Assembly: GCA_013329215.1 (NCBI GenBank)
Contig: DUKS01000002.1
Coordinates: 13,669 to 77,668, forward strand
DNA: 64,000 bases
DNA from: Nanobdellota archaeon
GTDB taxonomy: Archaea; Nanobdellota; Nanobdellia; SCGC-AAA011-G17; GW2011-AR17
Direction of reading: 5' to 3'
Shown: positions 6,418 to 56,734 of the stretch, in pieces
Layout: each line of letters begins with the position of its first letter
Position numbering within the stretch: position 1 is the first letter of the stretch
Program-made: the position numbers and the translations under genes
Notes under the pieces: model-generated
The model's database searches: none
What the model was told of the DNA's origin: nothing
Seen by the model: the letters and a program-made list of their open reading frames with translations, nothing else

Positions 6418-6425
6418 TTTATAAA
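6418..6425 (+). promoter_or_regulatory. TATA box of the aIF1A promoter (leaderless)
   Basis: tttataaa 23 nt upstream of the ATG at 6449. Confidence 0.5.
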
Positions 6426-13310: not shown

Positions 13311-15984
<2,674 letters not shown>

Positions 15985-15997
15985 TTCTTTTCTTTTT

Positions 15998-16864
15998 TTA
16001 TATTTTTGTTAATATTACCGGCTTTTCCTTAATCAGTATTGTATGCTCTGCCTGGCTTACGTTGCCTTTTGAGGATTCATACAGCTGCGGGTAGCTGCGC
16101 AGTATTCCTTCCCTGAACAGGACCTGCATAAGGAATTTTGCTTTTGGAAAATCTTTTTCAAGCCATCTTGACGCAAACGGCAGCGAGCTGTATTCGTTTG
16201 CTATGAATGAGAGCATTTTTCTTGCAGCGGGGTCCCGTACGGGCTTTACCCTTGCAAGCTTGTATATGCCTGACGGCTTTCCCTCCGCAACCCTGCCTGA
16301 GCTCCCGTTTGTTGCAAACGGCTCAATGGCAATAATCTGCCCCTCTTTTAATTGGTCTTCATCCCCATTGTCATAATTCGGAATGCTTATCCCGGAATGA
16401 AGGTTGAATGTTGTTATGCCGTGGCCTGAAAGGTTGCGTATCGATATGAAATTGTGGTCTGATATTGCATTTGCTATAACTTTTCCTATTTCCCGCAGTT
16501 TTACACCAGGAACGCACAGCTGGATTGCGGCGTTTAGCGCATCTTCAGACGCTTTTATGAGATTGGCATCTTTGCCCAGCGTCCTTGCAGTGTCTCCGAT
16601 ATGGCCGTTCACATGTACGCCAACATCTATTTTCAGGATGTCTTCATCTCCGAATACTGTTTTGTCATCTGCTGAAGGAGTGTAATGCGCTGCCATTGAG
16701 TTCAGAGAGAGGTTTACAGGAAACGCGGGCTTTGCGCCCAGCTCTTTAATCCTGCCTTCTATTTTTTCAGCAAGCTCAAGCAGCGTTATTCCGGGCTTTG
16801 CAATATCACATCCATAGTTTAGGCACTCTCCTGCTATTTTTCCGGCATTAATCCAGTCTTCCAT
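15998..16864 (-). CDS. map: Methionine aminopeptidase, type 2 (archaeal)
   Basis: Pita-bread fold; metal ligands in the ...DVGVHVNGHIGD...GHGI... context. Confidence 0.85.
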   Translation of the reverse strand: MEDWINAGKIAGECLNYGCDIAKPGITLLELAEKIEGRIKELGAKPAFPVNLSLNSMAAHYTPSADDKTVFGDEDILKIDVGVHVNGHIGDTARTLGKDANLIKASEDALNAAIQLCVPGVKLREIGKVIANAISDHNFISIRNLSGHGITTFNLHSGISIPNYDNGDEDQLKEGQIIAIEPFATNGSSGRVAEGKPSGIYKLARVKPVRDPAARKMLSFIANEYSSLPFASRWLEKDFPKAKFLMQVLFREGILRSYPQLYESSKGNVSQAEHTILIKEKPVILTKI

Positions 16865-16896: not shown

Positions 16897-18954
16897 CTAT
16901 TGGCCTTTCTTTTTCCAGTGGTTTATCACAAAATCCCCATCTACAACTAGCTCGGTTGCATTTCCCCCGACCATCTCATATAGCATATTATTAAATATTA
17001 CTTCGCACACGCTGTTCAGGCTTCTTGCACCCTGCTTTAATTTTTGCGCGGCTTCTGCTATGGCCTGACGTGCATCTTCTGTCACCTCAAGTCTTATCTT
17101 TGCTTCCCTGAACAGCCTTCTGTAGTGCCTGAGCACCGCCCCCTTGGGCTTTGTTAAAATATCCTGCAATTCGTCTCTTGTGAGCTCATATAAGGGCGCG
17201 CGAATGGGAAATCTCGCAACAAACTCAGGAAGGAAACCATAGTCTATAAGGTCCTGCGGCGTTACCGCCTCAAGCAGTTCATCTGTTTTCAGTTCGTTGC
17301 CTTGTGCGCCGAACCCAAGCTTCCCGCCTTTGCTTTTGGCAACTTTTTCTGTAAGGCTCTCCCCTGAGGAACTTTTTGAAAATGCGCCGCCTGCTATAAA
17401 CAGGATGTTTGTTGTGTCTATGGGGATTGAATCGCCATGGCGGCTCAGCCTGACATTTACAATTGAGCCTTCGACAGGCTTCAGCATCTGCTGCTGCGCT
17501 CCCTGGCCCCCCACATCATGCCCTCCTCCTTCTGTTGCTTTTCTTTTGTCTATTTCATCAAGGAAGATAACTCCTTTTTGGGTTTGTTCTAAGTCTTTTC
17601 CTGCCACGAAGTATAAGTCCCTAACCGGCTCATCGGCCTTGCTACCCCAGATGCCTTCATCTGTTATCTTGGATGCGTCAGAAACAGTGAATGGTATTCG
17701 CCTGCCCAGCATCTTTGCGAGGATTCTTGCGCAAGTAATTGCAGTGTAAGTCTTGCCGCAGCCTGTCGGCCCGAGCAGAAGTATGTTGCTCTTTTTCATC
17801 TCTTCATCTTCATCCTCTGCGCCTTTCTCTCCAATGCTTGTGACCCTGACTGCGTGCGAATAAAGGCCCACTGCAATAATGCGCTTTGCTCTTTCCTGCC
17901 CGATAATATATTCATCCAGCCATTCCTTGATTCTTCTTGGCGGCGGGACTTCTATATCTGAATCGCTGCTTTTTGCCAGCGCTTTCATCTCAAGCTCGCT
18001 TGGCATTTTGCCTTTGATATCTGCAAGGCTCTTGATTTGCCTGAGCATGAAAAGGAGCCCGCTTGAAATATCAAATTCAGGGTTAGCCCTTACATAAGCC
18101 AGGCCTTTTTCATATGCCTTGGCAAGGTCGCCTTTAATACCAGGCAAACTCTGGTCAAGAATATACGCCTTGAACAGGAACTGCACTGCCATCGGCACTG
18201 TTTCAGGGGCATTTTCCAGCATGAAATGCCCATACTTGTGCATAACAGCCGCATTGTCGGGCGCTTCATTCTTGCGGTGCTTCATCATCTGCACAAACGG
18301 CATTGTTTCCATGCCCCCCCCTTCTGATTTCTTCTCCCATATCTTTTTTCCGAACTTCGCAATAAGAAAGTCAGGGTCATCAAACTTCAGCCTGCAGGCA
18401 TTGACCATGCATTCATGCGCCTTGTCTTCGTATTCGCTGTTTGTGCCTTTTGCAAGCGTGTAGAGCTCATGCATTGCCGCATGCAGCCTGGCGTCTTCAG
18501 GGAATACAGAAAGCGCAATCTCGCCGACTTTTATCGCTTCGGGCACCATGTAAGCGCCGGCCTTCGGCATTTCCTGCCCGAGGAATTCCATGTATGAAAG
18601 GTAATTGTCAGGCGTTTCCTGTAGCTTTATCAGTGTTGAATGGTCCCTGCATCGCTTCCTGAATTCTTCTGCAGCCGCTGCGGGATTTTTGTATGCCTCA
18701 GACCCCATTCTTCTTCCGCATTCCAGGGACATTCTGCACATTGCAATCCTCTCTTCAAGCGAATCTGTGCTTGTCCCTGCTACATCGAATGTAGTGCGCG
18801 CATCATCAAAATTTCCATCAAGAAAGCTTCTTACGCCCGCTGCCTTTACGGTTGCATATTTCGTTCTCTCTCTTCTAGATGTTGACAGCTCGCCGCAGCT
18901 AAAACCCTTGCGAAAAGCCGCTGTAAGGTCCGTATTTTCAGGCTTTCCCATCAA
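16897..18954 (-). CDS. ClpX-family AAA+ unfoldase paralog 1 with novel ~330-aa helical N-terminal domain (no zinc finger)
   Basis: C-terminal half is ClpX-like: IKEWLDEYIIGQERAKR, LLLGPTGCGKTY, IFLDEIDK, GGGHDVGGQGAQQQMLK, NILFIAGGAF, LGFGAQ (IGF-loop-like), pore loop GIWG, LIDYGFLPEFVARFP; TATA 18975-18988. Confidence 0.75.
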   Translation of the reverse strand: MMGKPENTDLTAAFRKGFSCGELSTSRRERTKYATVKAAGVRSFLDGNFDDARTTFDVAGTSTDSLEERIAMCRMSLECGRRMGSEAYKNPAAAAEEFRKRCRDHSTLIKLQETPDNYLSYMEFLGQEMPKAGAYMVPEAIKVGEIALSVFPEDARLHAAMHELYTLAKGTNSEYEDKAHECMVNACRLKFDDPDFLIAKFGKKIWEKKSEGGGMETMPFVQMMKHRKNEAPDNAAVMHKYGHFMLENAPETVPMAVQFLFKAYILDQSLPGIKGDLAKAYEKGLAYVRANPEFDISSGLLFMLRQIKSLADIKGKMPSELEMKALAKSSDSDIEVPPPRRIKEWLDEYIIGQERAKRIIAVGLYSHAVRVTSIGEKGAEDEDEEMKKSNILLLGPTGCGKTYTAITCARILAKMLGRRIPFTVSDASKITDEGIWGSKADEPVRDLYFVAGKDLEQTQKGVIFLDEIDKRKATEGGGHDVGGQGAQQQMLKPVEGSIVNVRLSRHGDSIPIDTTNILFIAGGAFSKSSSGESLTEKVAKSKGGKLGFGAQGNELKTDELLEAVTPQDLIDYGFLPEFVARFPIRAPLYELTRDELQDILTKPKGAVLRHYRRLFREAKIRLEVTEDARQAIAEAAQKLKQGARSLNSVCEVIFNNMLYEMVGGNATELVVDGDFVINHWKKKGQ

Positions 18955-18999
18955 TGAGGGGTAATCGATTACAGGTTTATAAATATATCTCAGATTTCC

Positions 19000-20988
19000 C
19001 TAATTTTTGCCAACCGCTTTCAAAACCTCTCCCCTTCCTACTGAATAGTTCTTTATGCTGCTGCCAGGCAGGTAAAACAGCGCATCCTCAAAAAGTGAGT
19101 CGCATATTGTCCTTAGGCTTCTTGCGCCTGCATTTAGCGCATATGCCTCTTCTGCTATTGTGTCAAGCGCATCAGGCCTGACATCAAGCTTAACATCTGA
19201 CAGCCTGAACATTTCAACATACTGCGGTATGACCGCATCTGCGGGCTCTGTAAGTATCTTCCTTAATTCCCGCTCGCTTAGCTGCTCAAGCACAATCCTG
19301 TGGTGCAGCCTGCCAACAAACTCGGGTATGAAGCCGTATTCTATCAGGTCCTTGTCTGTGAGGCGGCCGGATATGCCCTTATTCTTGGGCGCTTCTTCAT
19401 GCCCGCCCATTCTAAACCCAATGTGCTTCTCTCTTGCGCCTATAACCTCTCCGATGCTGCCGCCTTCATTTGAAAAGGAAAATGCGCCGCCGACTACAAA
19501 CAGGATATTTGTCGTGTCTATCTGTATATATTTCCCCTGGCTTACTTCAACATTCACGACAGAGCCTTCAAGCAGCTTTAGATACTGCTGCTGCGCCCCC
19601 TCGCCGTTTACGTCCTTGCCCCCTCCCTTTATAGCCCTTATCTTGTCTGCTTCATCAAGATAGACAATCCCTCTTTGCGCGAGCTCAACATTCCCATTTG
19701 CAGCCCCCAGCAAGGCCAGGAGGCACTGCTCTGCTTTGTCCCCCACATATCCGGCGCTTGTCACTTTTGAAGTATCAATCACGACAAACGGAACACCTGA
19801 CATTTTAGCAAGCATGTTAAGCATGTATGTTTTTCCAGAGCCTGTCGGCCCAAGCAGGAGCATGTTGCTCTTGTCCAGCTTTTTCGCATTTTTGTCCATC
19901 GCCTGCCTAAGCCTGAGCAGGTGCATGTAATAGCCGACAGAAACCCCCATCTTTGCTTTTTCCTGTCCTATGACATAATCATCAAGGTGCGCCTTGATTT
20001 CCCGCGGCAGGACTACTTTAACCTCTTTTGAAAACTCCTTGACCTCATCCACTCTTGTTGCATTCGGGTTTTCGTTGCGCAGCTCTTTTTTCAGCTTGGC
20101 GACTTCTGCATAATTTTTGTGCAGCGCCTTAAACTGTTCCCCGTTCTTTCTCCTCCTGAGGCTTGCAGCTGCCTTGTCAAACGCTTCAACGACATCTTTT
20201 TTAATGCCATCAAGCGTCGGCTTTCCTTTCCACGCTTTGTATAAAGTGTAGAGCGCCCATTCTTCATGCGTATTAATGTTCCTGAGCATGTACCTGCCAT
20301 ATTTCTGCAGCGCTTCCGGATTTCTAAGTATTGCGTGCCCTTTGTATTCCATAATAATATAAAATGGAGCCTTTTTCATCTCAAACACCTCGCCTGGCTG
20401 CCAGAGCATTTTGCCGAATTCATTAATGAGGTAGTCGGGGTCATCGAACTTCAGCTTCACCAGCGCTTCAAGCCTTTTTTGCGCTTCTTTGTAGTTTTCG
20501 GTAAACACATATAGCTCGTACATCTCTGAATGAATCCTGTGGTCTTCCGGAAATCTTTCAAGTGCAATTTCCCCTACCCTTATGGCTTCAGCCATCATGT
20601 TTATGTGATGCACTTCCGCCATATCCTTTCCAAGAAAGTTCATGTACGACAGGAAGTTGTCAGCTGTCTCATGCGTTCTTATCGTGAACTCATAAGTGCT
20701 GCGCAGCCTATTGAATTCCTCTTCTGTCGGGCTTATCCTGAAAAGCTGTTTTGCGCAATCCAGCAGTTTCCCGCTGATTGCGTCTTTTTCAGAAACTGAA
20801 TCGGTTTTTGTGAGGGCTGTCATGAAACTAAACTGCGCCTCGAGGTAGTGCTCATCAAGGTAATCCCTCATTGCGTTTGCTTTATTCAGCCTAAATTCCG
20901 CCTTTATTTGATATAAAGAACATAGTCCGGCACAGTCAAAAGAGCCCTTTAGCCTATCTTCAAGGCTTTTGTTGCCTTGCTCTGCCAT
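19000..20988 (-). CDS. ClpX-family AAA+ unfoldase paralog 2 with the same N-terminal domain
   Basis: IKAHLDDYVIGQEKAK, LLLGPTGSGKTY, pore loop GYVGD, IVYLDEADKI, GGGKDVNGEGAQQQYLKLLEG, HIGFRMGG (IGF loop); N-domain aligns with paralog 1 (DNFLSYMNFLG, AIRVGEIALERFPED, KLKFDDPDYLI); likely start MAEQ at 20988, placing the TATA (21011-21018) 26 nt upstream. Confidence 0.75.
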   Translation of the reverse strand: MAEQGNKSLEDRLKGSFDCAGLCSLYQIKAEFRLNKANAMRDYLDEHYLEAQFSFMTALTKTDSVSEKDAISGKLLDCAKQLFRISPTEEEFNRLRSTYEFTIRTHETADNFLSYMNFLGKDMAEVHHINMMAEAIRVGEIALERFPEDHRIHSEMYELYVFTENYKEAQKRLEALVKLKFDDPDYLINEFGKMLWQPGEVFEMKKAPFYIIMEYKGHAILRNPEALQKYGRYMLRNINTHEEWALYTLYKAWKGKPTLDGIKKDVVEAFDKAAASLRRRKNGEQFKALHKNYAEVAKLKKELRNENPNATRVDEVKEFSKEVKVVLPREIKAHLDDYVIGQEKAKMGVSVGYYMHLLRLRQAMDKNAKKLDKSNMLLLGPTGSGKTYMLNMLAKMSGVPFVVIDTSKVTSAGYVGDKAEQCLLALLGAANGNVELAQRGIVYLDEADKIRAIKGGGKDVNGEGAQQQYLKLLEGSVVNVEVSQGKYIQIDTTNILFVVGGAFSFSNEGGSIGEVIGAREKHIGFRMGGHEEAPKNKGISGRLTDKDLIEYGFIPEFVGRLHHRIVLEQLSERELRKILTEPADAVIPQYVEMFRLSDVKLDVRPDALDTIAEEAYALNAGARSLRTICDSLFEDALFYLPGSSIKNYSVGRGEVLKAVGKN

Positions 20989-21079
20989 GCACATATTATA
21001 TGCAGCCGGCTTTATAAACATTCTCCCTTCTATCACACGTTAGAAAAGCTTTTAATCATGCTTCCGCTTTTTCAGCTGT

Positions 21080-23377
21080 ATGAAAGGGTTCATAGTATAC
21101 ACAAACTACAGGCTGCTTGATGAAAAGCCTTATGTTTTTCTCATAGGCCGGCTTGAAAACGGGGAAGCGTTTGTAACTGTAAGCTCTTACAGGCCATACT
21201 TTTACATAAAAGAGCAGGATTTGAAGCAGGCTGTGAAGCTTGACCAGTTTGAGCATGAAAAAACGCAGATGAAGGACTTTGAAGGGGAAAAAGCAGCGAG
21301 AATTTTCACACAAAAGCCTTCTGACGTGCCTGAGCTAAGGCACCTGTTTGAATCCAACGGCATTAAATGCTATGAAGCTGACATTAGGTTTGCCCAGCGC
21401 TTTCTTATAGACCACGAGCTAAAAGGAACCGTTGACATTGAAGGTGATTATGAATATCAGGACACGCTGCGCGTTTACAGGGAGCCGAGGCTGAAGACCT
21501 GCGAATTCTGGCCCGAGCTCAAGGTGCTTTCAATCGATATAGAAACAAGAAGAGATGCAAAAGAATTGTACGCAATCGCGCTTGCATCAAAGGAGAAGGA
21601 CACAGCGCTTATAGTATCCGAAAAAAAAGTAAAAGGTGCAGTTGCATGCAAAGATGAGGAAGAGCTTATCACGAAATTCCTTGCATCTGTCAATGAGTAT
21701 GACCCTGACATAATCACAGGCTGGAACCTGATAGACTTTGACCTGAAAGTCTTGCAGGAAAGATGCAGGGGATACGGGATGGAACTTGCAATAGGCAGGG
21801 GCGGAAAAAAATGCAGGCTGAAGATTGAAGCTGATTTCATGAAAACCTCAAAAGCAGACGCGGAGGGCAGGATAATAATTGATGGTATGCAGCTTTTGCG
21901 CGATGCATTTGTAAAGCTGGAAGACTACAGGCTTGAAACCGCAGGCAGGACACTTGCCGGCGAAGGCAAGCTGGTGAAGTTTACTGACAAAGGCAGGGAA
22001 ATAGAAGCAATGTTTTTGGAAAACAAGCAGCTTCTTTCTGAGTACAACATGCAGGATGCAAAGCTTGTGCTCAAAATCCTTGAAAAGACAAACGTTCTGA
22101 ACATTGCTGTTGAAAGAAGCATTCTTACAGGAATGCCTATAGACAGGGTTTCAGCTTCAATCGCATCCTTTGACTCGCTTTATCTGAGGGAAGCAAGGAA
22201 AAGAGGAATTGTATGCCCGTGCGCATCATATGCAGAGAAAATGGAAAGGGTCAAGGGCGCATTTGTCATGGAACCAAAGCCAGGCATATATGACAATGTT
22301 ATTGTTCTTGACTTTAAGTCACTATACCCGTCTATAATACGGACTTTTAACATAGACCCCGCGAGCTTTGCTGCCGGTTGCAAGGGAAAAAATCTTGTAA
22401 AAGCGCCGAACGGCGCATGCTTTAGGAACGAGGATGGGATTTTGCCTGAAGTCATACAGCGCCTGTGGGAAGCAAGGGAGATTGCAAGAAAAAGAAAAGA
22501 TGAAACCGCAAGGTTCGCAATCAAGATACACATGAACAGCATTTACGGCGCAATGGCATCCCCAAACTGCAGGTTCTTTAACATGGACATTGCAAATGCA
22601 ATAACCTCTTTTGCAAGGCAGATAATACAGGCATCTGCCGCTGAAATAGAGAAAAAAAAGTATGGCGTGCTTTATTCTGACACAGACTCCTGTTTTGTTG
22701 TGTCTAGGGCGAAAACACCGGAGGAAGCAAATGAAATAGGGCGGGGGCTTGCGGCAGAGATTAATGAATTCTACAACGGGCTTGTTAAAAAGGAATTCAA
22801 AAGGCAGTCTTTCCTTGAAATGCAGTTTGAGAAATGCTTTTCAAAGTTCCTTATGCCAAAGCTGAGAAAGTCGGAAACAGGCGCCAAGAAACGGTATGCG
22901 GGCCTGTATGTGAAAAATGGGAAAGAAGCAATATCCATCACAGGGCTTGAGTTTGTAAGGGGCGACTGGACAGAGCTTGCCAAGAGGTTCCAGTATGAGC
23001 TGCTTGACAGGCTTTTCCACAACAAGGAAATACTGCCGTTTATTTCAGAGTTTGTAAAAAAGCTGCAGGGTGGGGAGTTTGATTCGCTGCTGGTTTACAG
23101 GAAGACCGCAAGGAAGAACCTTGACGAGTACACTAAAACAACCCCGCCGCACATAAAAGCCGCAAGAAAGATGGAAAAAGTTGAGAACAACCGAATTGAA
23201 TATATTATGACCGAAGACGGGCCTGAGCCGATGGAAAAGATTGAGCATAAGATTGATTACGGGCATTACCTGAAAAAGCAGCTAAAGCCAATTGCTGATT
23301 CAATATTGACTTTCTTCGGGCAGACATTTGAGGATGCTGCAAAAGGCGTGAAGCAGCAGACGCTTGGGAATTATTGA
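21080..23377 (+). CDS. polB: Family B DNA polymerase
   Basis: Exo I LSIDIET; motif A DFKSLYPSII; motif C YSDTDS; KxxxNSxYG (KIHMNSIYG). Confidence 0.9.
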   Translation: MKGFIVYTNYRLLDEKPYVFLIGRLENGEAFVTVSSYRPYFYIKEQDLKQAVKLDQFEHEKTQMKDFEGEKAARIFTQKPSDVPELRHLFESNGIKCYEADIRFAQRFLIDHELKGTVDIEGDYEYQDTLRVYREPRLKTCEFWPELKVLSIDIETRRDAKELYAIALASKEKDTALIVSEKKVKGAVACKDEEELITKFLASVNEYDPDIITGWNLIDFDLKVLQERCRGYGMELAIGRGGKKCRLKIEADFMKTSKADAEGRIIIDGMQLLRDAFVKLEDYRLETAGRTLAGEGKLVKFTDKGREIEAMFLENKQLLSEYNMQDAKLVLKILEKTNVLNIAVERSILTGMPIDRVSASIASFDSLYLREARKRGIVCPCASYAEKMERVKGAFVMEPKPGIYDNVIVLDFKSLYPSIIRTFNIDPASFAAGCKGKNLVKAPNGACFRNEDGILPEVIQRLWEAREIARKRKDETARFAIKIHMNSIYGAMASPNCRFFNMDIANAITSFARQIIQASAAEIEKKKYGVLYSDTDSCFVVSRAKTPEEANEIGRGLAAEINEFYNGLVKKEFKRQSFLEMQFEKCFSKFLMPKLRKSETGAKKRYAGLYVKNGKEAISITGLEFVRGDWTELAKRFQYELLDRLFHNKEILPFISEFVKKLQGGEFDSLLVYRKTARKNLDEYTKTTPPHIKAARKMEKVENNRIEYIMTEDGPEPMEKIEHKIDYGHYLKKQLKPIADSILTFFGQTFEDAAKGVKQQTLGNY

Positions 23378-23423: not shown

Positions 23424-24278
23424 ATGGCTTACCTCTCTGAAATCCACGCCTGCCGGTGGATAAAAGACCCTGTAAAGCTTTATATTTCCTTTACAGCTGC
23501 TGACCAGCACAAATCGCTTGCAACAGACATTGCAGTTGCTGTCACAAAAGCATTGCAGGAAGACCACAGGGCTTATCTTTCAAAATACGCAGGGTTTGCA
23601 GGCAAGAAAATAGTTTATGCTGATTCCAATCCTGATTCTGGCTCAAGCGAGCATGAAAATTGGCATACATTCCTTGAGAGAAGAAAGCTGAGCCCTGCTG
23701 CAGGGGAATTCATAGAGGAAGCAAGCTCTTATGTGATAGACGACCTGGAAACAGACAAGCCTTCCTGTGAGTACCTGAAGCACCTCAACTGGAGCAATGA
23801 GTTTGTCAGGACTTACCTTGCCATGCAAAACCGCCCCATATCAGAGCTCGAAACAATCCTGAGGCAGTTCGGGCACATTATCCCTGAATGGAATGAACAG
23901 GTAATGAAGGGCTCGTGCCCATGGCTGCGCTTCACAGACGAGGCAAAATATTTCCTGCTTTATCATCTCTGCTTTGACATAGCTTTCGGAAGGACAATAC
24001 AGGAGGCAAAACGAATCTACACCACTTCACTAAAAATAACAAAAAAGAAGGGTGTTGCAGCAGGGATAAAGCATTTAAGGCGGCGCGCTTCAAAAGCTGT
24101 TTCTGACATGTATGATTTTGATTTTGATATAGGCGGCTATTATCCAAATTATCCTTCCCTTGTGGAATACAGATTTTTCGGCAAAGAAGGGATTATCATA
24201 GAGGCGTGCGGAAAATATCCCTCATGGGTTGTGCCTCTTGACAGGGAAATTAAAAGAAGGGGGCTTGTCCCTGATTGA
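23424..24278 (+). CDS. Hypothetical protein, paralog A of a tandem pair (conserved Cys/His, unknown family)
   Basis: Shares HACRWIKDP, GxFIEEAS, CPWL, YFLLYxLCFD, GIxHLR, DxYDF...DIGGYxPxYP and EIKKRG with the next ORF. Confidence 0.55.
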   Translation: MAYLSEIHACRWIKDPVKLYISFTAADQHKSLATDIAVAVTKALQEDHRAYLSKYAGFAGKKIVYADSNPDSGSSEHENWHTFLERRKLSPAAGEFIEEASSYVIDDLETDKPSCEYLKHLNWSNEFVRTYLAMQNRPISELETILRQFGHIIPEWNEQVMKGSCPWLRFTDEAKYFLLYHLCFDIAFGRTIQEAKRIYTTSLKITKKKGVAAGIKHLRRRASKAVSDMYDFDFDIGGYYPNYPSLVEYRFFGKEGIIIEACGKYPSWVVPLDREIKRRGLVPD

Positions 24279-24328
24279 TGATTTGCAGAATATAAATGCT
24301 TATAAATCTTCAAAAAATCCAGCTTACT

Positions 24329-25183
24329 ATGGTCTCGATTCTTGAGGTAATGGCCTGCCATAGGATAAAGGATCCCGTTCGCTTTTATCTTCACACAACT
24401 TCAGAAGGGGAATATGAATTCCATGCAAGGGAATTTGCTGAAACTGTCGCAAGAAGGCTGATGGAAACAAGAAGGGCCTACCTTGCCACCGTTTCCGCGT
24501 TTGCAGATGACGGCAGGGTCATTTCCACAAAAGAAACGAGCGATGGCGGGCAGGCGCATGAAAGATGGCATAATTACGTGCAGGAAAATAAGCTTGAGTC
24601 TGATGCCGGGGATTTTATAGAAGAGGCAAGCGCTGCTGTAATTGAGTCTGTTACTGACGGATATGGCGACAAGTACCTTGAGCCAAGCAAGAGGTTCCTC
24701 CAGCTCCACCTTCTGGTGCAGAGGAGCAGCGGCGAGGAACTGGAAAAAATACTTGAAAAATTTTTTGTTGGCGACAAGGAACTTGTATATGAAGCTGACA
24801 AGATAATTATGGGCGATTCCTGCCCGTGGCTAAGCTATCTTGCGGAGGCGCCTTATTTTCTCCTTTACGGGCTTTGTTTTGATGTCTGTGCAACGAGGGG
24901 CCTAAGGGCTGCCAAGAGCATATATAAGACTGCGCTGAAAAAATCCAAATGCAAGGGAGTTAATGCAGGGATAAACCACCTCAGGCAGCATGCGACTTCC
25001 TCTGTTGCAGACCTTTATGATTTTTGCCTGTCTGACATAGGGGGATATCTGCCGAGCTATCCCCAATCACACCAGATGGAATATGTCTTTTTTGACAAAA
25101 AGCTGAAGATAGAAGTTTGCTTTGCTTACAAATCATGGCTTGAGATTGTTGAAAAGGAAATAAAGAAAAGAGGCTTTAGATAA
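24329..25183 (+). CDS. Hypothetical protein, paralog B of the tandem pair
   Basis: MACHRIKDP...DSCPWLSYL...YFLLYGLCFD...GINHLRQH...DLYDF...DIGGYLPSYP; start placed at the M that aligns with paralog A. Confidence 0.5.
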   Translation: MVSILEVMACHRIKDPVRFYLHTTSEGEYEFHAREFAETVARRLMETRRAYLATVSAFADDGRVISTKETSDGGQAHERWHNYVQENKLESDAGDFIEEASAAVIESVTDGYGDKYLEPSKRFLQLHLLVQRSSGEELEKILEKFFVGDKELVYEADKIIMGDSCPWLSYLAEAPYFLLYGLCFDVCATRGLRAAKSIYKTALKKSKCKGVNAGINHLRQHATSSVADLYDFCLSDIGGYLPSYPQSHQMEYVFFDKKLKIEVCFAYKSWLEIVEKEIKKRGFR

Positions 25184-25978: not shown

Positions 25979-26998
25979 GTGACGATGGCAAAAAGGCGAT
26001 TAGCAATAACAGAAGCTTCTACCAAAGATAACAGGAAAGACGCGGAGAAAGGAAAAGTTAAAGCTATTGCTAAACCTAAACAAGAGACTATTCGCCCTTA
26101 CCAAAAAAAGAGGAATAACATACTCTCTAAATTTAAGGTATGCACTAATAAACTCATTCAACATCGAAAAAATCCCATATTAGTCATGTTTTACTGTTCT
26201 GAAGGTGAAGGGAAAATTTTCCCTTGGGATTTGGCGTTGCTTGAGAAAGAATTTCAACATTATTGTGACTGTAGAAGAATTAGCAAGATAGATAAACTTG
26301 ATTTGATTATCTATACTAGGGGAGGGGATGCAAATACCTCTTATCGTTTAGCACAGTTAATAAGGGGCTATGTTAATCATTTGCATGTCATCATTCCAGA
26401 GTTTGCATATAGCGGGGGGACACTTATTGCTTTTGCAGGCAATTGCGTAGAAATGGGGGTTACAAGCGTGCTCTCACCAATTGATGTTCAAATTACTGAT
26501 AATAAAGATAAAGGGATTTCCCTGCTTGGCTTTGAAAAGTTTGTTGAGTTTATAGCAGACAGTTCGGCAGTTTTTCATCTTGAGGAACAAGAAAAAGCTC
26601 ACTTTGCCACGGAACTTATGAAATGTTTAGTTGAACAAGCCACTCCACTTGAACTTGGAGAAATATATAGGTTAAGAAGTATGACAAAGTATCATGCTGA
26701 AACTCTTTTAGCGAATTATATGTTTGGTAATGATGCAAACAAGGCAGCAATTATTCATAATGTAATAGGTGCCTTTACTAAAAATGCACCTTCTCATAGC
26801 TTTGATATGGACTATAATCTTGTTAAAGCAACTGGTATTAAAGTCAAACCAATGGATAGTAAAACATATAAACTCTCAAAGTCCCTAATAGAGCTATGCG
26901 TAAAGTTAGCAGACGAAGGATTAATTTGCAAATATCCGCAAGCCCAACTCAAAGTGAGGGCTCCTTACTTCGGCATATTCGACAGAAAAGATATGTAA
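25979..26998 (+). CDS. ClpP-fold serine protease, SDH (serine dehydrogenase proteinase, ex-DUF114) family
   Basis: IIYTRGGDANTSYRLAQLIRG...HVIIPEFAYSGGTLIAFAGNCVEMGVTSVLSPIDVQ, which resembles my recollection of the SDH/DUF114 family consensus (TPGG...A..I..........YAMSGGTLIAL.AD.IVM....LGPIDPQ); the gene is markedly AT-rich. Confidence 0.6.
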   Translation: MTMAKRRLAITEASTKDNRKDAEKGKVKAIAKPKQETIRPYQKKRNNILSKFKVCTNKLIQHRKNPILVMFYCSEGEGKIFPWDLALLEKEFQHYCDCRRISKIDKLDLIIYTRGGDANTSYRLAQLIRGYVNHLHVIIPEFAYSGGTLIAFAGNCVEMGVTSVLSPIDVQITDNKDKGISLLGFEKFVEFIADSSAVFHLEEQEKAHFATELMKCLVEQATPLELGEIYRLRSMTKYHAETLLANYMFGNDANKAAIIHNVIGAFTKNAPSHSFDMDYNLVKATGIKVKPMDSKTYKLSKSLIELCVKLADEGLICKYPQAQLKVRAPYFGIFDRKDM

Positions 26999-27152
26999 CT
27001 CATGGAGGCGTAAAAATGACATTCGAAGAAAAGTTTTTGGCAAGTCAAGAATACCACCAAAAAATATTAAAGTTTGAGTTTGAGAAACTCGGCAAGTCCT
27101 ATCTTGAAAAAATATAGGAAAAGAAAGTTAATTAATTTCTATTCTTTCTTTT

Positions 27153-28052
27153 TCATATCCTACCCTTACTCATCTGTATCAATTCCAGCCACTTATTCGG
27201 GGAACTCAGCGTTAAGTCCGTCGCCAACTCATAAGGGCATTTATTCAGTGATTGGTGCTTTGTTATGAAATTGTAGTATATCTCATATCCCTTTATGATG
27301 AGATTAGCACTTTCAACACTTCCGTGAAAGCCACGCATGGTTTTAGTCCTTGCCCTGATGCTGTTGTGCATCCTTTCAATGGGATAATTGAAGCTACCGC
27401 CGTCAGAAACAACCACTTTGTTATGTAATACATTGTGTTGGCGAAGCTTGTTATTGTAGCCGAAAACCCGCTTAATTACCCTCGGATAAGCCTGCAACCC
27501 ATCTGTTGTAATCATTCTGACATTGTCGGACTTTGCCTTAACCTGCTCCATAACTCTTTTTATTTTATCCGCACTTCTTGATTTAGCAAACTCCGCAGCC
27601 ACCATAAACTTTGTGTCAGGGTCTATGCTGTCTATCAGCCAATTCTTATCTAATCCGCCTCTGATGTGGTGCTTTCGCCTGTGGTATTCCACTTCATCCA
27701 TCTGGATTTCTTCCCCTGTATTCAGCTTCAAGCTGTCTGTAAAGCCTGATATTTGCCTTGCATACTTCCATAGCCATCTTAGAATTGTGCTGTGGTCTGA
27801 ATTATGCGGGTAGAACGCCTGTAAATGCTCCTGCACCTTTCTTGTGCTTACTCCCCTGTAAAACAGGTCAAGGCACAAGGTTATCTTCTGGGGGCTGTTT
27901 CTCATCCTGTAAAAGCCCTCATCCAAGACAAACCTATGAGAGCAATCCGCACATTTGTATCTCTGAATAAGTCCCCTGTTGCCTGTTTTCCGTAGCCCGT
28001 CTTTCTTGATATGCTCTTTCCCGCATTGTTGGCATTTGATTGCTTTTTCCAT
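27153..28052 (-). mobile_element. IS6-family (IS240-like) transposase with N-terminal zinc finger
   Basis: CQQCGK...CADCSH zinc finger; DDE core with ITTDGLQAYPRVI; TATA tatataaa at 28074-28081 about 25 nt upstream of the ATG. Confidence 0.75.
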
Positions 28053-28056
28053 ACTA

Positions 28057-28099
28057 TTTAGGTACCTAAACAGGTATATAAACCTTTGGGTACCTAAAG
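28057..28099. promoter_or_regulatory. Two GGTACC-centred palindromes flanking the TATA box (candidate operators)
   Basis: tttaggtacctaaa (28057-28070) and ctttgggtacctaaag (28084-28099), centres 28 bp apart, with tatataaa between them; a third copy ttgtaggtacctaa at 28753-28767. Confidence 0.45.
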
Positions 28100-28165
28100 T
28101 AGAAAAGTATATAAATACCTATAATTAATCATAGCTTGTTATAACTTATTATAGTTGATAGGAAG

Positions 28166-28474
28166 GTGAAAACGATGATAAATGGAAGGGCGACAACAAT
28201 ACAGGTGATGGAGAATACAAGACTTTGCCTTGAAAAACTTAAGGTCGTAAAGCAAGAACCTTATGATAATGTCATAAGGAGGATTATAGAGAGAGTATTA
28301 GACTTATGTGAAGAAGGTACAGATTTAGAGACAAAGAAGATGATACAGGGTAGGCTAAATGAGGTTGCTAAAGGGGACGTTATTTCAACAAAGCAGTTAA
28401 GAGATATTTTATTTTCGGGAGGGGAAAAAAATGGTGAAATACGAAAAGGTATGGGCAAGGTCTATAGGGCATGA
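28166..28474 (+). CDS. Putative antitoxin (archaeal VapB-like family)
   Basis: TTIQVMENTRLCLEKLK...EPYDNVIRRIIERVL pattern; upstream of the RelE-like toxin and overlapping it. Confidence 0.45.
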   Translation: MKTMINGRATTIQVMENTRLCLEKLKVVKQEPYDNVIRRIIERVLDLCEEGTDLETKKMIQGRLNEVAKGDVISTKQLRDILFSGGEKNGEIRKGMGKVYRA

Positions 28475-28751
28475 CCTAAAAGGAATAAGTGAAAGAATAT
28501 TTAATGTTATTGATGGTAAAATAGATGATATTCTAGATTCCCCGAACACAAAATCAAAAAAGATAAAAGGATGGGCTTATAATATAAGAAGAATCCGTTT
28601 GGGTAATTACCGACTTTTAATTTATGTGGATGACTTAAACCTAACAGTCTATTGCTTGGCTTATTTACCTAGAAAAAATTGTTATAGCCCAGAAACAAGG
28701 GCAATGATTATGAATATCGCTAGGAATGTTGAAAAACAAAAAAGTATATAA
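28431..28751 (+). CDS. RelE/ParE-family toxin
   Basis: GYNIRRIRLGNYRLLIYVDDLNLTVYCLAYLPRKNCY. Confidence 0.6.
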   Translation: MVKYEKVWARSIGHDLKGISERIFNVIDGKIDDILDSPNTKSKKIKGWAYNIRRIRLGNYRLLIYVDDLNLTVYCLAYLPRKNCYSPETRAMIMNIARNVEKQKSI

Positions 28752-28774
28752 ACTTGTAGGTACCTAATAAAGAT

Positions 28775-28936
28775 ATGAAACTGCAAAAACAGCTTTCTCG
28801 GAAATACGAAGGAAAGGATTATGCCAAGTACGTTATCGTTATAAAACCAACATATATTGAGCAATTGGGCTGGAAGAAGTCCGACGAGCTTAAAGTAGAA
28901 GTTAAGGATAACAAGCTGGTTATAGAGAAGGATTAA
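28775..28936 (+). CDS. Small AbrB/MazE-like (swapped-hairpin) protein, 53 aa; not in the ORF track
   Basis: Manual translation MKLQKQLSRKYEGKDYAKYVIVIKPTYIEQLGWKKSDELKVEVKDNKLVIEKD; a GGTACC palindrome lies 8 nt upstream. Confidence 0.45.
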   Translation: MKLQKQLSRKYEGKDYAKYVIVIKPTYIEQLGWKKSDELKVEVKDNKLVIEKD

Positions 28937-28937
28937 A

Positions 28938-29159
28938 ATGATAAAAGTTAAATCAAAAAGGGGGGTTTTGGCTGAATATCTGAGGAACCCCTATATTGAA
29001 ACAAGCTTAATGGCAGTTATTTATTTTGAATTTAGTAGTATAGTATTAGATTATTTTCCAAAGAAGAAGTATATTTTATTATGCTGGTCTATTATTTCAG
29101 CAATAGTTATAATTGGATATTGGGCATACAGGCAAAAAGCGTATTCAAATAAAACTTAA
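28938..29159 (+). CDS. Small membrane protein (two TM segments)
   Basis: Hydrophobic segments; starts 2 nt after the AbrB-like ORF. Confidence 0.35.
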   Translation: MIKVKSKRGVLAEYLRNPYIETSLMAVIYFEFSSIVLDYFPKKKYILLCWSIISAIVIIGYWAYRQKAYSNKT

Positions 29160-29209
29160 TAATAATAGTTTTCGGACAAATATATTCTTTATATAATCTT
29201 TAATGTGCT

Positions 29210-29240
29210 TAGCACCCGCTAACGCACCAATGTAGGCTCT
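29210..29240. repeat. Right copy of the 30-bp inverted repeat
   Basis: cttagcacccgctaacgcaccaatgtaggc; contains TTAGC-N4-GCTAA; a TATA-like ttataaag lies 14-21 nt downstream. Confidence 0.7.
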
Positions 29241-29291
29241 GCAAAAGGCTTATAAAGTATAGCTGAATAACTTTCAGCGGGGGTAATTATA

Positions 29292-29702
29292 ATGGCAGAA
29301 ATATCAGAACTCGGAAGAAAACAGATTGAGTGCTGGACAGCGCTCAAGGCATATCTTGAGCAGGTCTTTGCAGATGAGAAGCTGGAAAACCTGCTTTTTA
29401 ACGGAAGGCGGGACATAGAACTATTCACGGCTAAAGATGCCGAGGTAAATGCAAAAGGAGCAAAGGTGCAGGTTGTTTATGGAATAAATGGCGTTGGTGC
29501 ATACCGCAAGGTCGAAGATGAAACCCTTTTCCAAAACATATTCCACTACCGCTGGGGGCACCGCCATTCCCCGTTCGCCCTCGCTTTTGCGCTTGCTGCG
29601 GACTCAAAGGACGCGCTGACACCTGCAGACCTGGAAGCAAAACTTGGGCCTTACAGGCAGATGGCGGCCGGCACTGCCCAGCCCGCCCCGCAGGCAAAGT
29701 AA
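29292..29702 (+). CDS. Hypothetical protein with GC-rich Ala/Pro-rich C-terminus
   Basis: ORF only; preceded by the 30-bp repeat and a TATA. Confidence 0.35.
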   Translation: MAEISELGRKQIECWTALKAYLEQVFADEKLENLLFNGRRDIELFTAKDAEVNAKGAKVQVVYGINGVGAYRKVEDETLFQNIFHYRWGHRHSPFALAFALAADSKDALTPADLEAKLGPYRQMAAGTAQPAPQAK

Positions 29703-42230: not shown

Positions 42231-44876
42231 CTACAAGCCGAACTCAACCTTTCTCTTGTACTTTACTGCTGAAGGCGCGGCTCCGCCGTGCCACGTCATT
42301 CTTGGGCGCACTCTCATCGGGTAGAACCGTTCAGAATTATCGTCAAGTATTAATGCGGCGCCCTTCACTCTCGGAAGCTCGTCCAGCAGGCGAGGCAATC
42401 CTTTTGCAAGATAGCTCTGGCTCATTGAAGCCAATGCATCAACATCAGGCTTTGCAGTAAGCCTGTGCGCTATGATTATGTCAGACTGGCTCATTACATC
42501 AGAATGAATCTTTCCCGGCTGCTGCGTTGCAAGTATCAGGCATACACCGGGCTGCCTTCCTTCCCTCATGACTGTAACCAAAGCGTTTGTCGCGGCTGTC
42601 TTCCCGTCTTTAGGCAGGAACTCGTGCGCTTCATCCACAACAAGCCACACAAGAGGCAGGGGCTCTTTCTTTCCCAGCTCTTCAGAAGCCTGAAAATAGC
42701 TGTAGCCTATCTTAATTGCCTCGAGCTCTTCTGCTTTTCTTGCCAGCATTCTTTGCGTGAAAACCCTCATTCCAACAAGGCCTATGACCAGCGCCTTTAC
42801 GCCCCATCCGCCGGGAGTTGCAACATACGGCGACAGGTCCATTATAGTCACCTGCCCGGGCTTTACAAGATCCATAAGGTCCATTCCGTTTTCATCAAAC
42901 AAGCCCCACCTTTCAGCAGCCCTGAACCTGTTCACTGCATCATTCTTTATGTCAGAATTAAATGTGCTGTCCTGCTCTATCCTTTCTACTATGTCCTTTA
43001 TGCTGTATCCTGTTACGCCATCATCGAGTATATCCCCCAATATCTTTTCAATGACAACTGCAACAGAATTGTTCGTGTCAAGCTCAAAGCTCAGTATCCA
43101 GTCCTGCGCAGTAAGGTCAGACGGCTTTATTGAGAACGGCTCATCAGTCGGAATCCCATCATCCTTGTATTTCTGGAAAAAGCCGGCAGGCGTGTATATT
43201 TTCACATCCATCCCCCTGCCTGCAATGCCCCACAGCTCAAGCAGGTCCTCGTCCTTCTGGTTCTGGTACTTCATTGTCCAGTAAACGCCCATGGTGTCCA
43301 TCATAATCATTGAGAGGTTTCTTCTTACATCATCAGGCAAATCCATAATGCCTTCTGCAATCGCACCCATCGTATATGAGTTGTGTACAATTATATCATT
43401 TGCGACAAAATTATGGAATTCAGGCACACATATGTCGTAGACTTTAAACTTGCCTTCCATTACTTCGAGGCTTGCAATCTCATCCCAGAATATGTCTGAT
43501 GTTGCAAGGAGCTTTATCTGCTCTGCATTGTCATACTCTGCTATCTGCAGCAATTTCTGCCTTGAAGGCGCATAGCTTATGCTGCTTCTCAATGCTTTTC
43601 CCGAGCTGTATCCCATTTGGGTTCCTACTTCTGCCCAATTCTTAGGCCTGTATATATCCCATATTTCTTTCGGTATTGTGTCAACATTGGGGTTTCTTGT
43701 TATTTTAACTGATTCTTTCAGCGCATACTCTTGTTTTATTTCTTTTTCCCCGAAAAATCCTATTTCTTCAATAAATCTTACAACATTTGCACCATCGAGC
43801 GTAAGCTCGAATGTGTTAAACAGCTTTCCATTGCATTTTGTTTTCTTGTTCCTCAGCTTTGAAAGAATGCCAAACCTTAACAAAAGGCTCTGCACCTGCC
43901 TGATAAGCTTTTCAGAGCTTGATGCATAAGATACTTCCCATGAGCTTTCCTTCTTAAGCCTGTAAATGCTTCCGTCGCAGCTGAAAAGGCGGTTAAGGAA
44001 CACCTTAAGGGGCTCTTTCTTTGCCTTGAATACAATTTCAGGGATAACTTTTTGCGCAGAAAGCAGGTTATGCATGCCTGTTTTTTCAGAAAATTCCCTT
44101 ATGCTCTTTTTCTTATGCTCTATGCTTGTTCCCTTGCCAAACCTTCCGAGTGAATCCCTGTTTATGCTATAGCCTATCACCTGATGATTTTGCTCTTTTG
44201 ACCGTACTCTGTAGCATCCCTTATTATCTTCAACAAGCTCCATATTTTCATCAAATCTGTTTAGGGCTTCTTTAAAATCCGAAATAAGCTTTTCATCAGT
44301 ATTGCTGAACAATACAACCCTCCCTTTTGTATGTCCTTCTGCTATTAAATAAGCCATCAGCTTTGCTTCATGCTCCGGAAGCTCTTCTTTGCCAAATGAA
44401 GGAATATTCCTTGGAACAGCAATCCTATCGCCCAATGTAAGCTGGTTTGCGGGAATCCATCCTTCTATTGTTAATAGGGGATGCTCGGGCGTAAGCTTTA
44501 TTTCCCTGCCGCTTCTCATCCTCATTTTAACTATCTTTTCAACTTCCCTTTCAAAGAAATCCTCTTTTGCCATCGCATCTATCTTCAGCCCGTCATTCAA
44601 CCCGAATATTTTAGCGGAATTATCTTTCAATTCCTGTATTGGCATCTGCGAGCCATCGTCCAATTGGATTAGTGTATCTTCTGTAAGGCATTTCCCGCTT
44701 CCTCTTTTGCCCACAATATAAATAACGTGGCCCCTTGCAATGTCCATGTAAAGCGGGTTTGACAAGGAAGTTGTCCTGCCCATTTTGACATATGTCTTTC
44801 CAATAAGAACAACACCCTGCTTGCCTAAAAGCTTCGTATCCTCTTCATCCCTGCCTATGATTATGTCAAAGGTCAC
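42231..44876 (-). CDS. HerA/FtsK-superfamily (DUF87-like) ATPase interrupted by an intein in the Walker A loop
   Basis: Extein: N-terminal barrel-like region, VGKRGSGK|...|SYTM, Walker B VVDEAHEF, then EGRQPGVCLILATQQP; the intein is 437 aa. Confidence 0.75.
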   Translation of the reverse strand: MTFDIIIGRDEEDTKLLGKQGVVLIGKTYVKMGRTTSLSNPLYMDIARGHVIYIVGKRGSGKCLTEDTLIQLDDGSQMPIQELKDNSAKIFGLNDGLKIDAMAKEDFFEREVEKIVKMRMRSGREIKLTPEHPLLTIEGWIPANQLTLGDRIAVPRNIPSFGKEELPEHEAKLMAYLIAEGHTKGRVVLFSNTDEKLISDFKEALNRFDENMELVEDNKGCYRVRSKEQNHQVIGYSINRDSLGRFGKGTSIEHKKKSIREFSEKTGMHNLLSAQKVIPEIVFKAKKEPLKVFLNRLFSCDGSIYRLKKESSWEVSYASSSEKLIRQVQSLLLRFGILSKLRNKKTKCNGKLFNTFELTLDGANVVRFIEEIGFFGEKEIKQEYALKESVKITRNPNVDTIPKEIWDIYRPKNWAEVGTQMGYSSGKALRSSISYAPSRQKLLQIAEYDNAEQIKLLATSDIFWDEIASLEVMEGKFKVYDICVPEFHNFVANDIIVHNSYTMGAIAEGIMDLPDDVRRNLSMIMMDTMGVYWTMKYQNQKDEDLLELWGIAGRGMDVKIYTPAGFFQKYKDDGIPTDEPFSIKPSDLTAQDWILSFELDTNNSVAVVIEKILGDILDDGVTGYSIKDIVERIEQDSTFNSDIKNDAVNRFRAAERWGLFDENGMDLMDLVKPGQVTIMDLSPYVATPGGWGVKALVIGLVGMRVFTQRMLARKAEELEAIKIGYSYFQASEELGKKEPLPLVWLVVDEAHEFLPKDGKTAATNALVTVMREGRQPGVCLILATQQPGKIHSDVMSQSDIIIAHRLTAKPDVDALASMSQSYLAKGLPRLLDELPRVKGAALILDDNSERFYPMRVRPRMTWHGGAAPSAVKYKRKVEFGL
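43380..44690 (-). mobile_element. Intein with LAGLIDADG homing-endonuclease domain (approximate coordinates)
   Basis: Begins CLTEDTLIQLDDG right after GSGK; LAGLIDADG-like LMAYLIAEGH and NRLFSCDGSIY; ends IIVHN followed by S+1. Confidence 0.7.
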
Positions 44877-56086: not shown

Positions 56087-56734
56087 TCAGGCCTTGAATG
56101 TAGTGTCAAACTGCCTGCTTATAACGGATTTTATCCCATCCTTTGTGATTGTCATTACGTCAATGCCATTGCCTGTTGCAATATCCCTCTGCATTGCCGC
56201 GTTAAGGCATTTGACAGCAAGGTCAACGCCGTCGTTTATGCTCATGTCCTTTTTGTAAAGTGTTTCAAGCACTCCTATTGCGACTGAGCTTCCCGAGCCG
56301 TCCGTCCTGTAGTCATCTGCTTTTGATGTGCTTCCGTCAACTCCTATCTCATACAGCCCGAAGCCCGCCTTGTCCATGCCGCCAAGGAGAAACCCGACAA
56401 TTCCCGGCACCATGCTCGGCCTTCTTATGTTCACATATGCGAGGCTTGCCAGTAGGTTTGCGGCTTCATCAATGCTGGGCTCTTTGCCTTTTCTTATTCT
56501 CAGCAGCTTCAGCTGCGCCCTTATTATCCTTGTGAAAAGCTGGGTGTCGCTTACCAGCCCGGCTGTAGTAATTGCCATGTAATCTGTTATTTTTTGTATC
56601 TTTTCAGCTTTCTTGTCTGCAACAAAATAGCCTGCGCTTGCCCTTCTGTCTGCCGCAAGCACAATTCCGTCTTTGCAAACTATCCCCACTGTGGTCGTGC
56701 CGTGCGCAACCATGTCATTGATTTCTTTTTTCAT
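56087..56734 (-). CDS. psmB: Proteasome beta subunit
   Basis: Propeptide with HG|TTTVG processing site (Thr1). Confidence 0.9.
   Translation of the reverse strand: MKKEINDMVAHGTTTVGIVCKDGIVLAADRRASAGYFVADKKAEKIQKITDYMAITTAGLVSDTQLFTRIIRAQLKLLRIRKGKEPSIDEAANLLASLAYVNIRRPSMVPGIVGFLLGGMDKAGFGLYEIGVDGSTSKADDYRTDGSGSSVAIGVLETLYKKDMSINDGVDLAVKCLNAAMQRDIATGNGIDVMTITKDGIKSVISRQFDTTFKA

Follow-up and report, generated by a model that had tools for sequence, protein, structure and literature searches.

ClpX is a protein-unfolding motor that is otherwise characteristic of bacteria and of mitochondria. Descriptions of energy-dependent proteolysis in archaea usually name the proteasome with PAN or CDC48, together with LonB, and ClpXP is treated as a bacterial or organellar system. 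We analyzed a stretch of 64,000 nucleotides (hereafter the window) of contig DUKS01000002.1 from the assembly of a Nanobdellota archaeon (GCA_013329215.1) and found there two adjacent genes, each joining a ClpX-type AAA+ module to a helical N-terminal domain that resembles tetratricopeptide repeats (TPR). We refer to this architecture as TPR-ClpX. What is new here is a ClpX motor with a TPR-like head in DPANN archaea; the ClpX clade and the TPR fold are already known.

In the described systems, the IGF loop docks ClpX into ClpP's hydrophobic clefts, and ClpP is contacted by the pore-2 loop as well (PMC7547079). Mcx1, the ClpX of ClpP-less yeast, is without the IGF motif (PMC10886707). We compared the two genes with known ClpX and related unfoldases in profile, sequence and modeled structure.

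A ClpX-type motor with a TPR-like head

Paralog 1, the divergent type, occupies 16897-18951 on the minus strand and encodes 684 amino acids from its likely start, the ATG at 18951 (the open reading frame [ORF] extends to 18954); it is 100% identical to P0121. Paralog 2, the canonical type, occupies 19000-20988 on the same strand and encodes 662 amino acids from a likely ATG at 20988, with 100% identity to P0001; its mechanically delimited ORF reaches a GTG at 21036 (19000-21036, minus strand). Both genes are intact, and a full-length comparison gives 38% identity between them. Their presence as two minus-strand genes agrees with the original prediction, an earlier note made on this DNA. The guanine-cytosine (GC) content of the pair, 0.47-0.485, is near the window average. 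Public databases name TPR-ClpX proteins merely "AAA family ATPase."

Judged by sequence comparison and by predicted structure, both C-terminal halves belong to the ClpX clade of AAA+ modules and not to HslU, ClpA/B or Lon. With NCBIfam profiles, the two paralogs scored 296 and 333 bits for ClpX, 150 and 168 bits for HslU, and at most 45 bits for ClpA/ClpB; both ClpX scores lie under the NCBIfam equivalog cutoff of 359 bits. The ClpX profile alignments begin at position ~50 and leave its zinc-finger section without a counterpart. Comparison with PDB sequences gave 241 bits for ClpX, 218 for human CLPX, 136 for HslU and ~36 for VAT. In a Foldseek search with a full-length AlphaFold model (predicted local distance difference test [pLDDT] of 80), the top 50 of 50 matches were ClpX chains, with target-normalized template modeling (TM) scores of 0.70-0.87 and ~40% identity. 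All three comparisons thus favor the ClpX assignment that had been predicted, and none placed the module in another HCLR clade. A defense-system or phage origin was rejected; PADLOC returned only generic AAA-level matches (DolB at 27 bits and IetA at 22 bits).

Both paralogs, like the family at large, preserve every catalytic motif, namely Walker A and Walker B, the Asn of sensor-1, the Arg finger and the Arg of sensor-2. In paralog 2, the AAA+ module with its large and small subdomains lies at 19003-20007 (minus strand, as are all motifs given here) and contains Walker A at 19828-19851, Walker B (DEADK) at 19642-19656, sensor-1 (NILF) at 19498-19509, the Arg finger (PEFVGR) at 19309-19326 and sensor-2 (GARS) at 19117-19128. 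The module of paralog 1, at 16900-17946, has Walker A (GPTGCGKT) at 17749-17772, followed by a six-amino acid insertion common to P0122-P0124, and carries Walker B (DEIDK) at 17545-17559, sensor-1 (NILF) at 17398-17409, the Arg finger (PEFVAR) at 17212-17229 and sensor-2 (GARS) at 17020-17031.

The pore-1 loop is GYVG in paralog 2 (19741-19752) and in most of the family and GY[H/Q]G in P0122-P0124; the aberrant GIWG of paralog 1 (17644-17655) was seen in no other of the 43 sequences compared. The ClpP-docking tripeptide is IGF in paralog 2 (19414-19422), where it sits in a flexible loop (residues 523-537) predicted with a pLDDT below 50, and LGF at the equivalent place in paralog 1 (17311-17319). 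All four loops had been quoted in the original prediction and were found at these coordinates. The retention of an IGF-type loop, also noted there, extends to the whole family: only P0251 and P0257 depart from [I/L/V/M]-G-F, which the other 25 of the 27 members have, and the tripeptide is conserved among lineages sharing only ~30-40% identity. Relative to bacterial ClpX, all family members (27/27) have the RKH loop deleted or replaced and a pore-2 loop shorter by ~3 residues.

The C4 zinc finger of ClpX is missing, as had been stated. We found no match to PF06689 (zf-C4_ClpX) in either paralog or in the Pfam lists of P0001-P0009 and P0121-P0125, and neither paralog has a CxxC pair. The N-domain of paralog 2 covers residues 1-306 (20071-20988, minus strand) and is followed by a flexible linker of residues 307-327 (20008-20070, minus strand). 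An AlphaFold2 model of the domain (pLDDT 85) predicts 16 helices arranged as a TPR/HAT-like solenoid of tandem helix-turn-helix repeats, and the domain has matches of the TPR type, including one to a TPR profile. The homologous domain of paralog 1 (18001-18951, minus strand) keeps every family-invariant N-domain residue. Generic TPR/HAT solenoids (LGN/Pins, the TPR of OGT, BamD, CstF77 and PEX5) include no close relative, with TM scores of ~0.3-0.4 and 10-16% identity, and the family motifs ETADNYLxYMxFLG, FPEDxRI and KLKYDDPDFL are absent from all Pfam families. The N-terminal blocks quoted earlier turned out to be conserved family columns. According to the model, the N-domain is a helical-repeat solenoid, a known fold in a new sequence family of restricted distribution. 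Of the "novel shared N-terminal domain" proposed for the pair, the sharing holds, since the domain is conserved in both paralogs, and the sequence family is new; the fold is not.

In one protein of 716 amino acids (P0256), the N-domain motif appears as KLKYHDADFL… and is joined to an apparent amino-acid-kinase-type C terminus and not to ClpX. This fusion implies that the TPR head may be a portable module.

Distribution, history and setting of the family

We searched 5.8 billion proteins with word-based methods and, exhaustively, 1.8 billion representatives with a hidden Markov model (HMM) of the N-domain. The word searches recovered as full-length relatives only eight paralog-2-type proteins (P0002-P0009) and four paralog-1-type proteins (P0122-P0125), all remaining matches being bacterial ClpX aligned to the C-terminal half only. 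Among the 42 matches of the HMM, ~20 were 640-720 amino acids long, with the domain in N-terminal position and a ClpX module present on inspection. The family consists of 14 close members and, from the N-domain profile search, ~13 distant ones built in the same way. The search of the representatives gave ~20-27 clusters of this architecture, every one of them in a DPANN-type setting, so that the family looks restricted to DPANN archaea, and the members with organism names belong to metagenome-assembled genomes (MAGs) of Nanoarchaeota, Nanoarchaeia or Woesearchaeota. Scans with N-domain patterns, an insensitive method whose locus counts are lower bounds, gave three loci in GTDB genomes and one short contig in JGI metagenomes; with the same insensitive method, viral contigs gave no match. 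A search of the literature on ClpX or ClpP in DPANN, Nanoarchaeota, Woesearchaeota or other archaea returned nothing relevant.

The relationships were studied with a neighbor-joining tree of 332 ATPase columns and 200 bootstraps, which included 15 canonical bacterial ClpX sequences, the bacterial sampling consisting of best matches only. The family stood apart from the 15 bacterial sequences with 92% support when P0010 was counted in and with 62% support on its own. Among ClpX proteins that lack the TPR head, P0010 is the nearest one found; its N terminus is divergent and zinc-ribbon-like, LGV replaces IGF, and its grouping as a sister may be due to long-branch attraction. In a homolog search with P0010, those relatives carrying a name were Treponema-like and none was named as DPANN. 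Recurring contigs of ~255-261 kb, which may be huge phages or very small genomes, carry three of the P0010 relatives (P0283, P0285 and P0300).

Within the family, paralog 1 grouped with P0122-P0124 at 90%, a grouping that also shares the insertion after the Walker A helix, and paralog 2 grouped with P0002-P0008 at 100%. The slot between PolB and MetAP holds one gene in the relatives, of the paralog-2 type in L001 and L002 and of the paralog-1 type in L005-L007. The simplest reading is an old duplication with reciprocal loss elsewhere, the present genome having kept both copies. The tandem pair is then not the basic unit; with single genes at the same locus in close relatives, it represents a lineage-specific retention. 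A second tandem pair, in a distant clade (L008; GCA_974558285.1, 753-5035), arose independently and consists of P0250, with VGF, and P0257, with ISF, beside a divergent RNase HII gene.

The two copies in the window appear to be transcribed separately. The octamer TTTATAAA was found 23-25 nucleotides upstream of each ATG, in keeping with the earlier proposal of a TATA box for each gene. The box of paralog 2 (21011-21018) lies 23 nucleotides upstream of its ATG, within the 91-bp divergent intergenic region common with PolB, and that of paralog 1 (18976-18983) lies 25 nucleotides upstream, in the 48-bp spacer after the stop codon of paralog 2. With 2.6 copies of the octamer expected in the window, eight are present, most of them 23-32 nucleotides upstream of start codons, and this position fits largely leaderless archaeal transcripts and separate promoters for both paralogs. 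The further boxes are at window positions 6418, 31792, 45781, 51703, 51981 and 54054.

In the close clade, the gene order is PolB in divergent orientation, then TPR-ClpX, then MetAP. The window follows it, with the family B DNA polymerase (PolB) at 21080-23377 on the plus strand, divergent from paralog 2, and MetAP (M24) at 15998-16864 on the minus strand, directly downstream and with its own TATA-like box. CDC48 (13678-15984) stands beside MetAP, and the adjacency to these two genes had been predicted correctly. In four deep lineages (L008, L009, L020 and L021), RNase HII is divergent from TPR-ClpX, and in two other lineages, TPR-ClpX comes after a DAGK-like gene and a PUA methyltransferase and is followed by a small TPR protein. 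That a replication enzyme is the divergent neighbor in two different arrangements may hint, by synteny, at a link to the turnover of replication or repair proteins.

Peptidase partner and competing readings

We consider it most probable, at a rough probability of 0.55, that TPR-ClpX is a hexameric unfoldase that handles TPR-selected clients or adaptors and probably passes the clients to a peptidase of the ClpP type whose gene lies elsewhere in the genome. Above the pore of the hexamer, six TPR solenoids would replace the zinc-binding domain and capture substrates or adaptor peptides, after which the ATP-driven pore-1 loops would unfold and translocate the captured protein. The ring would dock onto the ClpP-type peptidase, making a ClpXP-like protease beside the archaeal proteasome and CDC48. 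The case for docking lies in the tripeptide. Its conservation across lineages of ~30-40% identity argues for a docking partner, and because it is under strong constraint here and lost in ClpP-less Mcx1, the ring would most likely dock on a peptidase of the ClpP type. The ClpP-fold partner proposed in the original prediction is a reasonable, though putative, candidate. By its sequence, paralog 2 looks like the canonical motor and paralog 1 like a still active ATPase, whose GIWG pore loop may mean a different grip on substrates or co-assembly with paralog 2.

Several points weigh against this reading. We searched six-frame ORFs of at least 60 amino acids from the window and 13 loci (~279 kb, partly redundant) using phmmer --max and an E. 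coli ClpP query, and only an S49/NfeD protein in L001 surfaced, weakly. The 64-kb window yielded no clpP, as had been noted before, and neither did ~20 kb of extra flank of the same contig or ~11 distinct family contexts; the Pfam lists of further family loci lack CLP_protease, and the clpP-clpX operon linkage for which we tested was not seen. Canonical ClpP is generally held to be absent from archaea. P0010, unlike the TPR-ClpX loci, belongs to a clpP-clpX operon, with the C terminus of a ClpP encoded directly upstream, at L018:2-97. The pore-2 loop, a ClpP contact in ClpX (PMC7547079), is shortened throughout the TPR-ClpX family. Finally, both structure models were built on a 14-sequence alignment, and we infer the oligomeric state of TPR-ClpX, its substrate binding by the TPR domain and its ATPase activity.

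Two ClpP-fold proteases encoded near the gene were considered as conserved partners and rejected, as neither recurs in other family loci. The SDH-type protease of the window (25979-26998), which the original prediction had put forward as a candidate partner, matches the phage family phrog_11747 (E=3e-30) and lies beside a DDE transposase (27153-28052). Both genes fall in a block of low GC content (0.385-0.39; window ~25979-29700) between a PD-(D/E)XK nuclease and FEN1. The block is missing in syntenic relatives and is probably a mobile-element insertion, with the SDH gene as its cargo. The other protease, the NfeD1b_N/Peptidase_S49 protein of L001 (12978-13880, minus strand), is encoded in convergent orientation immediately past MetAP, at a distance of two genes from TPR-ClpX.

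The main alternative, possible in our view though on balance somewhat unlikely, is that TPR-ClpX works as a stand-alone unfoldase or remodeler without a peptidase, the TPR domain selecting client complexes, possibly those of replication or repair proteins. Precedents are mitochondrial ClpX/Mcx1 acting on ALA synthase and ClpX disassembling MuA, and ClpP-independent chaperone functions of ClpX are documented (PMC7547079; PMC10886707). The lack of clpP in every context inspected speaks for it, as do the gene's divergence from PolB in the close clade or from RNase HII in the four deep lineages and the wealth of replication genes in the window (MCM, NrdD, PolB, FEN1, ligase and Lhr). Yet the tripeptide is kept in 25/27 members, while the ClpP-less ClpX that calibrates the comparison, Mcx1, lost it, and the link to replication is one of synteny, in small genomes whose housekeeping genes are clustered in any case. 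We think it unlikely that the lineage is without any ClpP and that its IGF-type loops dock the motor on the 20S proteasome, a noncanonical ClpP-fold peptidase or a replication-associated complex; the last idea follows from the divergent pairing with PolB or RNase HII. Docking specifically on a noncanonical peptidase (the 20S proteasome or an S49/NfeD or SDH ClpP-fold protease), which would make a hybrid machine, appears distinctly improbable. It would account for a tripeptide conserved without a visible ClpP, a proteasome subunit is encoded in the window (56087-56734), and ClpP-fold proteases are found near the gene in two genomes, SDH here and S49/NfeD in L001. Neither protease recurs, however, the SDH gene with its phage-family match sits in a transposase-bearing insertion, and the C termini (…AVGKN, …KKKGQ and …YIKK) are without an HbYX-like motif for docking on the proteasome. 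We know of no precedent for an IGF loop docking on a 20S particle, which counts further against the proteasome.

The remaining alternatives concern the pair and its origin. Co-assembly of the paralogs into a hetero-hexamer, with paralog 1 specialized or partly nongripping, is compatible with the other readings and seems rather doubtful. The genes are adjacent, GIWG is unique to paralog 1, and the L008 pair also has a deviating member (P0257, with ISF); on the other side, each gene has its own promoter box, the ATPase motifs of paralog 1 are all intact, and genomes with only the paralog-1 type (L005) or only the paralog-2 type (L001 and L002) imply that each type can work alone. Bacterial contamination, that is, an ordinary clpX on a mis-binned chimeric contig, has a negligible probability even though bacterial ClpX, at 42-45% identity, supplies the best matches outside the family. 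The contig context refutes it: the host is a groundwater archaeon of the DPANN/Nanoarchaeota, and the contig is clearly archaeal, with MCM, NrdD/NrdR, PFOR, CDC48, type-2 MetAP, PolB, FEN1, DNA ligase, Lhr, FttA and a proteasome subunit in the window and TBP, eIF1A and eIF2-gamma in the flanks. These genes also support the archaeal host proposed from the sequence at the start. Moreover, the paralogs are embedded among such genes, their GC content fits the surroundings and their TATA boxes are archaeal; the contig was recovered independently in several samples, and several independent MAGs have the same synteny.

Neighboring genes and comparison with known systems

Beyond PolB, the window contains tandem paralogs of 284 and 295 amino acids (23424-24278 and 24296-25183, both on the plus strand) that are 42% identical and have no match in Pfam, PADLOC or PHROG. 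In L001, L002 and L005, one or two orthologs (281-292 amino acids) are always located between PolB and a PD-(D/E)XK/Cas4-like nuclease. The protein is a conserved unknown of the replication-gene neighborhood, and the genomes in which it is duplicated are those with extra copies nearby. A further ORF of 881 amino acids (42231-44876, minus strand) has Pfam matches only to an intein splicing domain and a LAGLIDADG homing endonuclease.

TPR-ClpX represents a deep, monophyletic family of the ClpX clade that is fixed in DPANN archaea; its head for substrate recognition is of another kind, and its docking loop is still under constraint. It raises the question of whether reduced archaea have a ClpXP-like protease and with which peptidase. 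The family can be seen as a natural experiment in which the N-domain was swapped on a well-studied motor, and the TPR head predicts a peptide- or adaptor-based choice of substrates, unlike the zinc-binding domain. Were the lineage truly to lack ClpP, TPR-ClpX would be a previously unknown archaeal machine for proteolysis or remodeling, and its significance would rise sharply.

Among the known systems, bacterial ClpX (E. coli and N. meningitidis; PDB 6WRF, 6VFS and 3HWS) is the most similar, with AAA+ subdomains ~40-45% identical to those of TPR-ClpX, the same catalytic motifs, the GYVG loop found in paralog 2 and an IGF-type tripeptide on a flexible loop. The archaeal proteins differ from it in the ~300-amino acid solenoid that replaces the C4 domain, the loss of the RKH loop and the shorter pore-2 loop, as well as in their host and the lack of an adjacent clpP. 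Mitochondrial ClpX (human CLPX and yeast Mcx1) has a motor of the same clade, as reflected in the 218-bit match to human CLPX, and shows that ClpX can act without ClpP. Human CLPX also has an LGF-type variant, as in paralog 1. The N-terminal regions are unrelated, and Mcx1 has lost the IGF motif (PMC10886707), whereas the TPR-ClpX family keeps the tripeptide. HslU, a sister AAA+ module of the HCLR clade, gave the second-best profile and PDB matches, but at about half the ClpX score and in a fragmentary alignment of three stretches; TPR-ClpX lacks its I-domain insertion and has the IGF-type loop that is absent from HslU. PAN and CDC48/VAT are the unfoldases to be expected in an archaeon, and CDC48 is indeed encoded next door. 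They belong to the classical AAA clade, however, and have other N-domains and a C-terminal HbYX docking motif that is absent from TPR-ClpX.

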